A stretch of DNA of 64,000 nt, from the NCBI GenBank assembly GCA_963842525.1, contig CAWJGT010000001.1:32001-96000 (forward strand), read 5' to 3'. A program made the position numbers and the translations under genes. Of this stretch, positions 54,421 through 58,431 are shown piece by piece. This DNA comes from an uncultured Holophagales bacterium (lineage in GTDB: Bacteria; Acidobacteriota; Thermoanaerobaculia; Multivoradales; UBA5704). The first letter of the stretch is position 1. Every line of letters starts with the position of its first letter. The notes under the pieces were generated by a model. That model saw only the letters and a program-made list of their open reading frames with translations. It was not told where the DNA came from and ran no database searches.

Positions 54421-55638
54421 TCACGGGTGATCCTCCTCCGGCTCTCCTTTCGGTCCCCAACGGGCATGGACCAGGCAACCGACCACTCCCACGGCAAAGG
54501 CGGCGTAGAACGGCCACCTCCGGTCGAGGGTCCACAGCCAGCCGCCGATCAGCGGGGCCGGGAACACGGCGAGGCCGCGGATCAGGTAATAGAGGCCGAC
54601 GGAGCGCCCGCGTGCCCCGGCGGCGGCGAGGTCGAGGATGAGCGCCTTGCGCGCCGGCTCGCCGGTCTCCCGCAGGCCGCCCACCACGAAGGCGGCGGTC
54701 AGCGCGGCGGGTCCGGCGGCGGTGGCGAGCGCCAACGGGAAGAGGGCGAAGAAGGCGAAGGTCAGGAGGACGAACGGCTTGCGGTTCATCCGGTCGGACA
54801 TCGTGGCGACCGGCAGGTAGACGAGGGTCGCGGCGATCATCTGGACGCTGGTCAGCCAGCCGAACTGGATCGCGGTGCCGCCCAGGACGTCGACGACGAA
54901 GAGGAGGATGAAGACCTTGGGGATGCCCTCGGCCCAGCGCGCCAGGACGTCGGCGGCGAGCAGCCGCTTGAGGCCCGGGTCCATCCGCCGCCAGAGGCTC
55001 CGCAGGTCCTGCGGATCGGCAGGCGGTGCCTCCCTTTCCTGATAGGCGCGCCGCAGGATCCAGATCCCCAGGAGTGCGAGGCCGATGGTGACCGCCACCC
55101 CGGCCCGCACACCGCCCTGCATGCCGAGGCCGACGATGAGGGCGCCCCCCAGCGGCGGCGCGAGGATGATCGGCACCCTTTTGAGGGTGGACTGCACCCC
55201 GAACCCGATCGCCCGTCTCTTGGAGGGTAGATGGTCGCCCAACACCGCGAAGATGGCCGGCAGCGTCAAGCTGCTCCAGGCCATGACGAGCACCGTGCCG
55301 GCCAGCACCCACGGCCAGCTCGGCGCCACCAGATAGAGGACATAGCCGGCGATGGCGAGCAGCGCGAAGAGGATCAGCGACGAGCGTCGGCCGAAGCGGT
55401 CCGCGAGCCAGCCGCCCGGGTAGGGATAGACGGCGTCGAGCAACTCACGAAGGGTCCCATAGAAGGCCACCCCCCACGCTCCGGCCCCGAGCACCTCCAG
55501 ATACTTGGGCACGAAGCGCACCCACAGCTCCTCGCCCATCCCCAGGACGAGGAATGCGGCGAGCATCGCGACGACGTTGCGCTCCAGCCCCAGGGAGGAG
55601 CGGAAGCGGGAGAGTGGCGGAGCGGCGGCGGGGAGCAC
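54421..55638 (-). CDS. MFS transporter
   Basis: GGWLADRFGRR motif A, about 12 TM segments. Confidence 0.92.
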   Translation of the reverse strand: MLPAAAPPLSRFRSSLGLERNVVAMLAAFLVLGMGEELWVRFVPKYLEVLGAGAWGVAFYGTLRELLDAVYPYPGGWLADRFGRRSSLILFALLAIAGYVLYLVAPSWPWVLAGTVLVMAWSSLTLPAIFAVLGDHLPSKRRAIGFGVQSTLKRVPIILAPPLGGALIVGLGMQGGVRAGVAVTIGLALLGIWILRRAYQEREAPPADPQDLRSLWRRMDPGLKRLLAADVLARWAEGIPKVFILLFVVDVLGGTAIQFGWLTSVQMIAATLVYLPVATMSDRMNRKPFVLLTFAFFALFPLALATAAGPAALTAAFVVGGLRETGEPARKALILDLAAAGARGRSVGLYYLIRGLAVFPAPLIGGWLWTLDRRWPFYAAFAVGVVGCLVHARWGPKGEPEEDHP

Positions 55639-55714
55639 GAAGGAGATTGTAATACATGTTGCTAGATGGAAACAGTAGTTTCACGCTGTGTCATGCTATT
55701 TGCGGGGGGGCGGG

Positions 55715-55984
55715 GTAGAGACGCCCCCAGTCCGTGACCACGAACCTGCCGGGTGCATACAGTCGGGGCGTCTCAAGGCCTCGCCCGCGAAACGGGTTCG
55801 CTCTTGCGCAGGAAACACGGATGGGATGGCTGTGCACAGGGACAGCCGGCCCGTCAGCGATGCGCGTACCGTGGACCCATCTCGGCGTCCACGGCGTGCT
55901 GTCGGCGTTGGTGGTATCTGGGGCCGTGAGTGAGACGCCCCGACTGTGTGCACCCGGTCAGTTTGGTCACGGACTGGGGCGTCT
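55715..55984. repeat. inverted doublet of GTAG-type REP elements
   Basis: GTAGAGACGCCCC-loop-GGGGCGTCTC at 55715-55774 (+) and an inverted copy at 55931-55984 whose GTAG lies at 57421-57424. Confidence 0.85.
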
Positions 55985-55998
55985 TCTATGAGAAGGCC

Positions 55999-56259
55999 CC
56001 GAATGTCAAGGCCGCCTTGGCGGCCTTCCCTATCTGGCTTCAGAGCTGCGTCTGTCCCCGAGTCTTCTATCCGCACTCTCGAGGAGTCCGTCGCTTGGAC
56101 TCGGTGCATGATGGGGTTCCACCGCAGCGGCGCTGCTATCTCTACAGCGGCCTCGTAGGCTGAAGACGCCCAGCGCAGTCGCCGGCAGCGGGGGTTCGAA
56201 CGCGAGCTCCTATCGACCGTGGTTTCTCCTACCTGAGATTTCCCCCTACCTGAGCTTTT
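55999..56259 (-). ncRNA. candidate seekRNA/bridge RNA
   Basis: 3' non-coding region holds segments matching the target (56164-56171, 56139-56145) and the donor junction (56110-56115, 56063-56070); RNA ends are not determined. Confidence 0.75.
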
Positions 56260-57318
56260 TTACGCTGCTGCCGGCTGGCGGCACAGCTCGTAATCCTCGC
56301 CGCTGATCCAGAGCCGGTGCAGCAGCACCGCCAGTTTCCGGGCCACGGCCACCACCGCTCGCTTCTTGCCGTTTTTGCCTCCACGCCGCGCCAGTTCCAG
56401 TCCGAACCTGCGTAGATCGCTGTCCTGGCCGAAAGGACCGAGGATGTAGTGCGCGGCCTGCACCAGCAGCCAGCGCAACAGCCGGTCGCCCTGCTTGGTG
56501 ATCGGCAACTGCGGCGTCGAGCTGCCCGAGCTTCGACTTGCTGGCACCAATCCCAGGTAGGCCCCCACCGAACGCGAGCGAGCAAAACGATGCGGATCGT
56601 CCAGCGTCAACACGAAGACCAGAGACGTCAGCGCTCCCACTCCCTTGATCTGGCGCAACCGCTGCGTCACGGCAAAACGCTGCGCCCACGCCTCAATGTC
56701 TCGGTCAAAGCCCCCGATCCGCTCACTCAGATCAGCGATCACCGCCAACAGCGGCTCCAGAGAAGCCTTCAGCGTCTGCGGCAAGGCCTGCGACGCACTT
56801 CGGGCGAAGCTTTTCGCCGAGCACCCCGGCAGGCGAAAGCCGAACGACTTCACCATCCCGCGGACCTGGTTGACCAGCATCGTCCGGACCTTGACCAGAC
56901 CCTCCCGGGCGCGCACCACCGCCAAGGCTTGCTGCGCTTCCGGGCTTCGCGCGTGCACCGGACTGAGCAACTCCGGGTCCACTCGGCCCAACTGCGCCAG
57001 GCACCGGGCATCCCGCTCGTCGCTTTTGCGCAGGCTCGATGCGATCGCCCGAACCTTGCTGGGATTGGCGGTGATCACCTGGTGGCCCAAAGATTCCAAC
57101 AACCGCCGCACCCAGGGTGTGTGCGTCCCGCTCTCCAGGATGACCAAACACGGGCTTGCCCCTTCAAAGTAGCGCTGAAAGCTCGCCGAGGTCGTCGACA
57201 GACGCTTCTCTTCCAAGATCGCTCCCGTTTCTCGATCCAGACGACAGATCTGACTCGAACGGTCCCCAAGGTCTACGCCCACCACCGCCTCCACCTCCAC
57301 TCTGATAGCATTCTTCAT
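56260..57318 (-). CDS. IS110-family transposase/recombinase
   Basis: GVDLG, LESG, KSDERDA (DEDD), GVG, AYLGLVP..SSG, AVARKL. Confidence 0.95.
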   Translation of the reverse strand: MKNAIRVEVEAVVGVDLGDRSSQICRLDRETGAILEEKRLSTTSASFQRYFEGASPCLVILESGTHTPWVRRLLESLGHQVITANPSKVRAIASSLRKSDERDARCLAQLGRVDPELLSPVHARSPEAQQALAVVRAREGLVKVRTMLVNQVRGMVKSFGFRLPGCSAKSFARSASQALPQTLKASLEPLLAVIADLSERIGGFDRDIEAWAQRFAVTQRLRQIKGVGALTSLVFVLTLDDPHRFARSRSVGAYLGLVPASRSSGSSTPQLPITKQGDRLLRWLLVQAAHYILGPFGQDSDLRRFGLELARRGGKNGKKRAVVAVARKLAVLLHRLWISGEDYELCRQPAAA

Positions 57319-57420
57319 GGCCACCCTCCTTTCTTGCGCTTTCCAGCGCTTAAATATTCCCAGTTTGCAGGGCCATTTTAAGGCACTGCGCACCGGGAGG
57401 GTGGCCTTCTCATCCCATCT

Positions 57421-57666
57421 CTACCCCCAGCGGTTCCGGAAGGGCTTCGCTGTGCTCCAACCGATCGGCGAGCACGCGAAGGGTCAGGGCCTGCGCCGCG
57501 GAGAGGGCGGCTTCCCGCGTCGGGCCGTAGACCATGACCTCAGGGCCTGCGCCGCGGAGAGGGCGGCTTCCCGCGTCGGGCCGTAGACCATGACCCCGGG
57601 GAGATCGGTGACGTCCGCGATCCAGCGACCATCGACTTCTCGTTCCAGCTCGACCGTCAGACGCAT
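57421..57666 (-). pseudogene. HicB-like antitoxin, disrupted by a 56-bp tandem duplication
   Basis: ELEREVDGRWIADVTDLPGVMVYGPTREAAL; 57484-57539 repeated at 57540-57595. Confidence 0.75.
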
Positions 57667-57711
57667 GAACGGAGGATACCACGCACCTGCCCTACAGGGC
57701 TGAGGATTCAG

Positions 57712-58431
57712 CTACTTCGGCGGCCGGCTGGGCCGCATCTCCACCCGGCTCGGCAGGGCGTGCGGGGGATAGCTGAGCAGGTGGAGGACCATGGAGGCGA
57801 TGTCCTCCGGGCGGAGCTTCCAGCTCTGGTCGCCGCTCTGGCTGCCTCTCCCGAAGGTGGTGTCGACGCTGCCGGGCATGATTGCGGCCACCCGGATGCC
57901 GTGCGGGCGCAGGTCCAGCATGGCCGCCTCGGAGAGGCCGAGCAGGCCGAACTTGCTGGCGTTGTAGGCGGAGCCGCCGGGGAACGGGTTCTTCGAGGCC
58001 AGGGAGGCGATGTTGATGATCCAGCCGTGCCCCTGCCGCTTCTGGGCCGGCGCCACGGCGTGGATGAAATAGAAGCAGCCGTCGAGGTTCGTCTGGATCA
58101 CCTCCCGCCACTGGTCGCCGGTCAGCTCGTCGACCGGCGCGAAGCGGCCCAGGCCGGCATTGTTGACCAGGCAGTCGATCCGTCCGGCCGCCTCCAGCAC
58201 CCAGGCGACGAAGCCGTCGACCTCCTCCTGGTTGCGGACGTCGACGGGCCGGCCGTCCACCCGGTCGCCGAAGCGCTCGCGCAGCTCGCCGAGCGCCTTT
58301 TCGACCGAGCCCGGAGCCCGGCTGCAGATGTAGACGCGCCACCCCTCCGCGAGCAGCGCCTCGGCGGTGCTGCGTCCAATCCCGCGGCTGCCGCCGGTGA
58401 CGATGGCGATTCTGGAGTTTTCTTCAGCCAT
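57712..58431 (-). CDS. SDR-family oxidoreductase
   Basis: TGGSRGIG, NNAG, YNASK. Confidence 0.95.
   Translation of the reverse strand: MAEENSRIAIVTGGSRGIGRSTAEALLAEGWRVYICSRAPGSVEKALGELRERFGDRVDGRPVDVRNQEEVDGFVAWVLEAAGRIDCLVNNAGLGRFAPVDELTGDQWREVIQTNLDGCFYFIHAVAPAQKRQGHGWIINIASLASKNPFPGGSAYNASKFGLLGLSEAAMLDLRPHGIRVAAIMPGSVDTTFGRGSQSGDQSWKLRPEDIASMVLHLLSYPPHALPSRVEMRPSRPPK

Follow-up and report, generated by a model that had tools for sequence, protein, structure and literature searches.

Insertion sequences of the IS110 family that are guided by a bridge RNA or seekRNA were described in 2024, and of the IS1111 elements catalogued, 93% were predicted to have such an RNA (Durrant et al., 2024; PMC11208160). 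The IS1111 group within this family is recognised by subterminal inverted repeats of 7-17 bp (PMC11208160), and by non-coding sequence that is longer on the downstream side of the transposase gene, the GL-P----S(t)G motif and the length of the protein (Siddiquee et al., 2024; PMC11187229). Junction promoters have been documented for ISEc11 among other members (PMC11187229; Pares-Guillen et al., 2025; PMC12288879). Here, an insertion sequence is described from a window of 64,000 nt (contig CAWJGT010000001.1, positions 32,001-96,000, of assembly GCA_963842525.1, an uncultured Holophagales bacterium) in a genome of 9.95 Mb, 34 contigs and 68% G+C (G000). The element is very probably an unnamed IS1111-group member of the IS110 family, with a predicted bridge RNA or seekRNA guiding its insertion into one arm of a repetitive extragenic palindrome (REP)-like hairpin. 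Positions are those of the window unless a contig is named, and the element is read on the minus strand.

The assignment to the IS1111 group is made because the protein family, the subterminal repeats, the long 3' non-coding region and an orientation-specific 12-bp site all fit this group, as the original prediction had proposed. Regarding the recombinase, the sole long open reading frame (ORF) with family support in the region (57318-56260) encodes an N-terminal DEDD (RuvC-like) domain (DEDD_Tnp_IS110, PF01548, E 1.4e-18) and a C-terminal Transposase_20 domain (PF02371, E 4.1e-19), the domain pair of the IS110 family, and matches the NCBIfam model NF033542, 'IS110 family RNA-guided transposase', with 243.7 bits against a cut-off of 140. 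The GL-P----S(t)G motif is present as GLVPASRSSG at residues 256-265, and the length of 352 aa is two residues above the range of about 330-350 aa quoted for the group. Alignment to the IS621 transposase (8wt6) using phmmer was weak but covered most of the length (residues 60-348, E 9.8e-08, 34.6 bits). The candidate catalytic residues are D16, E62, D100 and D103, assigned by reference to the residues that we take to be catalytic in IS621; E62, D100, D103 and S264-G265 are in register with the IS621 D-x-x-D and SG motifs in this alignment, while D16, within GVDLG, lies outside it and was assigned from the motif alone. The IS4321-family transposase, from the single named IS1111-group member compared by protein and 3' region, gave 84 bits with approximately 29% identity over 82% of the length, the IS621 bits coming from a different program, and the best plasmid-borne protein relative had 37% identity. 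The subterminal repeats are 11 bp long, perfect, located 5 nt inside each end and conserved in 10/10 related elements, and the non-coding region measures 272 nt 3' of the gene versus 97 nt 5' of it.

Three copies of the element are present in G000. In an end alignment they are 99-100% identical over 1440 bp, with identity running from GTAGAGATGGGATGAG on the left to CTCATAGAAGACGCCC on the right and unrelated sequence outside. The left end starts with ATGGGATGAG at 57418 and the right end closes with CATAGAAG at 55983; since AGA is found at both junctions, the boundary of the element is ambiguous by 1-3 bases. Two of the three copies, the window copy and L002, have retained an intact gene with the full 352-aa frame, and no differences were detected in the RNA core among the three.

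Regarding the target site, the insertion reads GGGGGTAG-AG-ATGGGATGAG...CTCATAGA-AG-ACGCCCCAG, and in all three copies the same 12-mer, GTAG-AG-ACGCCC, is interrupted in a single orientation relative to the site, with no duplication beyond the shared core. The exact empty 12-mer is found at 47 further places in G000, versus approximately 2.3 expected from base composition, and at 42 of these places the inverted partner GGGCGTCT is no more than 88 nt away, the 12-mer forming one arm of a REP-like hairpin. The empty sites belong to three REP-like hairpin subtypes, with 20, 14 and 11 sites respectively, and two others. Within the window, the repeat search showed that the interrupted unit forms an inverted pair with an intact unit in which the empty target GTAGAGACGCCC lies on the plus strand at 55715-55726. 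Targeting of REP-like units by the element, including the splitting of a REP (read from the junctions on the minus strand), the intact partner at 55715 and the expectation that other copies would occupy the same target, is confirmed as originally proposed. On X1, a contig from a soil metagenome, the right junction of a 99% copy is likewise in this type of REP, with other sequence beyond it, which adds weak support for the insertion site; contigs X1-X4 contain related copies, but neither the empty-site form nor the circle junction was found in them.

The REP-like family of G000 is built on the palindrome GAGACGCCC(C)...(G)GGGCGTCTC, for example at 55712-55775, and among the 47 empty target sites comprises two kinds of hairpin of about 62 nt and a short hairpin of 26 nt, with units often arranged as inverted pairs; it can now be annotated as an insertion sequence landing site. 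The site of the third copy (L003) is without the REP partner arm and resembles a different repeat, also found at C3:9522. One empty perfect site is located 270 bp from the window copy, and two others (C9:1772675 and C9:1773061) lie within about 1.3 kb downstream of L002.

Four guide strings had been proposed in the 3' non-coding region, and string search on the minus strand recovered all of them exactly where they had been placed: GGGCGTCT at 56171-56164, GTAGAGA at 56145-56139, CCCATC at 56115-56110 and ATAGAAGA at 56070-56063. Their logic matches the definitions of the LTG, RTG, LDG and RDG guides, the left and right target and donor guides (PMC11208160). When the 268-nt 3' non-coding region was shuffled 20000 times with its dinucleotides preserved, the core-anchored strings occurred singly 178, 2027, 899 and 459 times, at least two strings occurred jointly 188 times, and all four jointly in none. 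Two segments match the target and covary with the targets across 9-10 families, and two match the ends of the element, the covariation of the right guide being partial; for the left donor guide, an A/G at its third position tracks the right-end terminus in 10/10 families. The four segments picked by eye thus appear to be real, the right donor guide being the weakest of them.

Covariation was assessed across ten related elements. When a sample of 401 genomes of the same phylum was searched with the protein (E up to 1e-40), 29 genomes including G000 gave matches, and the comparison set consists of the window element and nine elements from other genomes with 46-55% protein identity, the boundaries being fixed by extra copies for three of these relatives. 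Loci in which one or both terminal motifs were not in the sequence were left out (L011, L013-L017, L019, L020, L022-L032, L042-L046), a number of these being located on short contigs; L013 (G152), where no terminal motif matched, was used in no analysis. All ten elements have a common left end, AG-AT(G/A)..GATGAGAAGG(C/T)C (the first hyphen marking the junction), and a common right end, G(G/A)CCTTCTCAT(A/G)GA(A/G)G. They also share an RNA scaffold, whose 5' part reads CCGGyGACUGCG, a variable block of 9-11 nt, a hairpin of variable length, a variable block of 6-10 nt and AGAUrGCAGCrCC, and whose 3' part reads CCCAnC-AUGCACC, a hairpin, GAGUGCG and rAUrGAAG.

Reverse complementation of the core and the element's own right flank yields the sequence of the first variable block over 10 nt in G389 and G112, 9 nt in G335, and 8 nt in the window element and one G069 copy, while the second equals the own left flank and core over 10 nt in G266, 7 nt in G259, G070 and G336, and 6 nt in G357 and the window element. 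Scores against the flanks of other families were almost all 2-3, and the sole cross-family score of 10 was between G389 and G357, which have the same right half-site. When targets were permuted among families, using the first copy of each family, the right target guides matched their own flanks with a sum of 55 (permutation mean 25.6, 0/20000; nine families) and the left target guides with a sum of 57 (mean 26.9, 0/20000; ten families); the right flank of G266, being a further piece of the element itself, was excluded. The guide of G069 has a U opposite G in four copies and opposite A in one, compatible with wobble pairing.

Some observations on individual guides and flanks stand apart from this test. 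The variable base within the right donor guide (CCCA-N-C) showed no consistent pairing with the left end or the right target and was dropped. The right target guide with the next two bases, UC (GGGCGUCUUC, 56162-56171), has 10 nt of complementarity to GAAGACGCCC, the right junction of the integrated element (55977-55986); this possible handshake pairing, as in IS621, was found in one of the ten elements, the window copy, and in none of the nine relatives, and was treated as chance. In L035 (G112, C1:86715-90719), one of three copies ends in CATAGAAG while its left donor guide is still AUGGAAG as in the other two, a natural mismatch of guide and end at which G opposite T could still pair. The right flank of L021 (G266, C38, a short contig) repeats part of the element's own 3' non-coding region (GCTTTCAGGCAGAGAGCGAAATCCC), which suggests a tandem or nested partial copy.

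Regarding RNA structure, RNAalifold recovered three helices (P1, P3 and P5) from the ten RNAs, together comprising 19 pairs with 95.3% of cells paired and compensatory changes in 9/19, a level reached in 0/500 shuffles; sliding the partner by 1-3 columns as a control lowered pairing to 20-44%. P3 accounts for nine pairs (six with compensatory changes, 96.7% of cells paired) and P5 for six pairs (98.3%). In constrained folds with the guides kept unpaired, P6 was present and a hairpin of variable length and sequence was found at the place of P4 in all ten RNAs, so that the target guides would face each other across an internal loop, with P3 closing it and P4 as its cap. P5/P6 lies between the donor guides in a region closed by P1, and in the consensus model P1 would enclose the whole target arm, giving a nested and not a serial layout. 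The guides are thus placed in loops of a conserved predicted structure; these loops appear in the comparative structure, while the single-sequence fold originally proposed as a check was uninformative. A G+C-rich hairpin, GGCCGCC-AA-GGCGGCC, is located at 56010-56027 directly 5' of TTGAC, with no U-tract; a hairpin at this place was detected in six of the ten elements (the window element, G266, G112, G070, G069 and G336) and could mark the RNA 3' end or be a terminator.

The shared core is more likely AG than the AGA originally proposed. In the relatives, AG alone is shared by both junctions, as in G335 (TCAG-ATGGG and GGAAG-GCGATT) and G069 (CTAG-ATGAG and GAAG-TGGCC), and the third shared base of the window element arises because its left end and its right half-site both start with A. 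Recombination of ISPpu9 also takes place at AG (PMC12288879). Except for this core width, the original interpretation of the element is supported.

At the right end, TTGAC is invariant and at a fixed distance from the terminus in 10/10 elements, from which we infer a junction promoter element; a sigma-70 promoter scan of 55600-57700 in the integrated linear form gave no sites. At the left end, the 11-nt perfect inverted repeat that was suggested to occlude the ribosome-binding site (RBS) was found independently by repeat search, the left-end GGCCACCCUCC pairing with GGAGGGUGGCC, and the suggestion gains support from the relatives: a consensus fold of the ten 5' leaders has 11 pairs, five of them with compensatory changes, and counterpart sequences pair in 10/10. 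This supports an RNA stem hiding the Shine-Dalgarno sequence, and a transcript from the junction promoter would probably still include the 5' arm of the stem. No treatment of such a stem in IS1111 elements was found in the accessible portions of the literature. It is possible, if doubtful, that a left subterminal repeat with double duty, as a DNA end mark and as an RNA stem burying the Shine-Dalgarno sequence, together with a nested bridge RNA, represents a variant not yet described for IS1111. If so, junction-promoter or read-through transcripts would be translationally closed until opened, for example by processing, by the recombinase or by the bridge RNA.

These features suggest the following mechanism. 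A DEDD/serine recombinase would be guided by a non-coding RNA from the 3' non-coding region, in which GGGCGUCU of the target-binding loop would pair with the top strand AGACGCCC and GUAGAG(A) with the bottom strand, while CCCAUC of the donor-binding region would pair with the left end. The guides would thereby bring the circular element, with the junction ...CATAGA-AG-ATGGG..., to GTAG-AG-ACGCCC in the 5' arm of the REP-like hairpin, with exchange taking place at the shared AG. On circularisation, TTGACA of the right end would be joined to GAAG-AT (the hyphen marking the joined ends), creating a junction promoter, and the stem formed by the left subterminal repeat and the Shine-Dalgarno sequence would keep translation down. 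The anatomy, copy number, site specificity, guide-target covariation and stem covariation were observed; that the RNA is made, bound by the recombinase and directs recombination, and that promoter and stem act as proposed, is suggested by analogy with the described systems. The element may amount to the complete, potentially reprogrammable system that the original prediction described.

Several results weigh against this mechanism or against the completeness of the system. Regarding the guides, the right donor guide has 6 nt, is without the first core base and tracks left-end variants clearly in G112 and G070 alone, with G069 and G336 not fitting. The right target guide matches poorly in four single-copy relatives (G259 2, G357 3, G336 4 and G070 5) and the left target guide in G389 and G335 (3 each); furthermore, for relatives with a single copy the ends were placed by means of the conserved terminal motif and on the assumption of an AG core, and the comparisons based on them are therefore not fully independent. 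The plain minimum-free-energy fold of 55985-56262 is no better than shuffles (z = -0.67) and leaves the guides partly paired, and an Rfam search of 55400-57800 (E up to 1) gave no matches. In ISPpu9, a relative that targets REPs, a downstream small RNA is dispensable for transposition (PMC12288879), and a downstream RNA is therefore not automatically a guide. Alternatively, the protein could choose the site by recognising the REP hairpin together with the subterminal repeats, with the target-like strings being captured remnants: GGGCGUCU, the right target guide, has the same sequence as the 3' arm of the REP hairpin, so that a captured REP fragment could mimic a guide, the left donor guide directly repeats the right terminus, and ISPpu9 enters REPs without its small RNA. 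Captured remnants, however, would hardly account for relatives at other sites that match their own flanks at the same scaffold positions (right 10, 10, 9 and 8 nt, left up to 10), nor for the location of these strings between covarying helices; moreover, for ISEc11, ISPa11 and ISKpn4 the RNA was reported to co-purify with the transposase, and for ISEc11 the downstream non-coding region encoding it is essential (PMC11187229). Site choice by the protein alone is thus barely credible here, and guidance by the RNA is preferred.

Whether the element is still mobile is a separate matter. It would be a dead relic if the lineage were immobile and its three copies old duplications carried along with their repeats, and the occupancy of approximately 3/50 sites, with 47 perfect sites left empty including those adjacent to the window copy and L002, is in keeping with that. 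In L003 (C25:401717-403159), the frame is broken near codon 30 by one additional G at element position 196 (equivalent to window 57226), the window copy has one G fewer in the right-end hairpin than the other two, and the circle junction expected from abutted ends had no matches in the own assembly. Old duplications would not, however, be expected to remain 99-100% identical with flanks unrelated beyond the 12-bp site, two full reading frames and an identical RNA core, and low copy number and rare excision are reported as the norm for IS621 (PMC13626964), which makes a relic improbable. The repeat over the RBS could similarly be viewed as a DNA-level extension of the left subterminal repeat recognised by the recombinase, and not as translational control, given that the stem shares GGCC of its 5' arm with the subterminal repeat and that such repeats define IS1111 elements. 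In all ten relatives, however, the partner arm includes GGAG and stops 1-3 nt short of the start codon, changes at the variable middle positions occur jointly on both sides (5/11 pairs compensatory) and the right end is without a matching third copy; recognition as DNA is decidedly improbable, and a stem that closes the RBS remains the preferred explanation. The coordinates of all features are given in the table.

Table. Features of the IS1111-group element and its insertion site, in window coordinates.
Feature	Position	Strand	Basis or remark
Insertion sequence, one AG core copy counted	55983..57418	minus	1436 bp; shared extent of three copies, flanks diverge outside
Left half of split target, GGGGTAG and AG core	57419..57427	minus	Sequence reading
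Left subterminal inverted repeat ATGAGAAGGCC (minus-strand reading)	57403..57413		5 nt inside left end; repeat search, 11 nt, 100% complementary
5' arm of putative RBS-pairing stem, GGCCACCCTCC	57396..57406	minus	Overlaps GGCC of left subterminal repeat
3' arm of putative RBS-pairing stem, GGAGGGTGGCC	57319..57329	minus	Holds Shine-Dalgarno GGAGG; ends one base before ATG
Recombinase gene, 352 aa	56260..57318	minus	ATG 57318-57316, GGAGG 7 nt 5'; Pfam and NCBIfam matches
Predicted bridge RNA or long seekRNA	56056..56194	minus	P1 CCCC 56194-56191 to GGGG 56059-56056, about 139 nt; predicted ends
Predicted helix P3, 5' strand GGCG-A-CUGC	56175..56183	minus	Pairs with GCAGCGCC 56136-56129; closes target-binding loop
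Right target guide GGGCGUCU (predicted)	56164..56171	minus	Complementary to top strand AGACGCCC; 5' strand of target-binding loop
Predicted hairpin P4, GCCU-ACG-AGGC	56150..56160	minus	Caps target-binding loop
Left target guide GUAGAG(A) (predicted)	56139..56145	minus	Equals top strand GTAGAG, complementary to bottom; 3' strand of target-binding loop
Right donor guide CCCAUC (predicted)	56110..56115	minus	Complementary to GATGGG of left end
Predicted helices P5/P6, UGCAC...GUGCG around GAGUCC-loop-GGACUC	56072..56108	minus	Hairpin between donor guides
Left donor guide AUAGAAG(A) (predicted)	56063..56070	minus	Same sequence as right-end terminus CATAGAAG
TTGACA, outward-facing -35-like hexamer	56004..56009	minus	17 nt before right-end GAAG (GAAGAT once joined to left end)
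Right subterminal inverted repeat GGCCTTCTCAT (minus-strand reading)	55988..55998		5 nt inside right end; same repeat pair
Right half of split REP-like unit, ACGCCCCAGTCCGTGACC...GGGGCGTCTCA	55931..55982	minus	Sequence and repeat search
Intact partner REP-like unit, inverted; empty target GTAGAGACGCCC at 55715-55726	55712..55775	plus	Repeat and string search

The element is intergenic, its neighbouring genes encoding a major facilitator superfamily (MFS) transporter and a short-chain dehydrogenase. Just beyond its left end, 57484-57595 is a perfect tandem duplication of 56 bp, its two copies being 100% identical, within a small minus-strand ORF (57484-57666), the frame of which it shifts because 56 is not a multiple of three; a Pfam search of this ORF gave no match. 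Other IS110-family elements are also present in G000, since tblastn with the recombinase detected further genes of this family at 15 places with 22-26% identity (contigs C3, C9, C11, C19, C21, C23, C30 and C34), including at least two to three groups of near-identical copies.

RNA-guided recombinases of the IS110/IS1111 type are under development as programmable DNA-insertion tools, and the present element, from a soil bacterium of high G+C content, is a further intact system of natural origin. The known mechanism is unchanged by these findings, which provide a sound annotation and a useful small comparative set without surprise. The more useful result is the set of ten elements, in which a shared scaffold combined with differing guides and targets amounts to a small natural series of reprogrammed guides and shows which positions are free to vary.

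Among described systems, ISPpu9 and ISPpu10 of Pseudomonas putida are likewise REP-targeting IS110-family elements with AG-AG recombination, and a 5' leader fold inhibits translation of the transposase, as predicted here; ISPpu10 forms a junction promoter, as may the window element (PMC12288879). ISPpu9 differs from the window element in being a member of the IS110 group, which has no terminal repeats, in having as its downstream small RNA a mobile module of its own, and in releasing translation through an antisense RNA (PMC12288879), of which the window element gave no sign. IS621 (Durrant et al., 2024; PMC11208160; structures 8wt6-8wt9, Hiraizumi et al., 2024) has a homologous recombinase and shares with the window element the four guides that include core bases, left guides directed to bottom strands and right guides to top strands, a dinucleotide core common to donor and target, and a REP target; it also forms a junction promoter on circularisation, as we infer for the element described here. 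The window element differs from IS621 in having the RNA in the right end and not the left, the right guide before the left guide in both pairs, the core AG where IS621 has CT, long (11 bp) subterminal repeats, a right donor guide lacking the first core base, and, in the consensus model, a target stem-loop nested within the P1 donor closure where IS621 has two loops in series.

Within the IS1111 group, the scaffold motif GACUGCG...AGAUGGCAGC of the window family is not visible in the 3' region of IS4321 (L047 590-2000, an Escherichia coli plasmid). The ends of IS4321 resemble those of the family, with ...GAGATGG followed by the repeat on the left and the repeat followed by ATAGATTCC on the right, and ATAGATTC recurs internally, some 65 nt ahead of the right terminus, which is consistent with a left donor guide. 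The seekRNA elements ISEc11, ISPa11 and ISKpn4 (Siddiquee et al., 2024; PMC11187229) share with the window element the DEDD transposase of about 340-350 aa with the GL-P----S(t)G motif, the subterminal repeats and the longer non-coding region 3' of the gene. As in the window element, the segment complementary to the top strand is located 5' of the bottom-strand one in IS1111 seekRNAs, the reverse of the IS110 group, the two target matches overlap at the insertion point, and the target is a potentially folded repeat, that of ISPa11 being a REP of Pseudomonas aeruginosa (PMC11187229). The window element differs from these three in target sequence and host, and is close in length to ISEc11, for which positions up to 1443 are given (PMC11187229).

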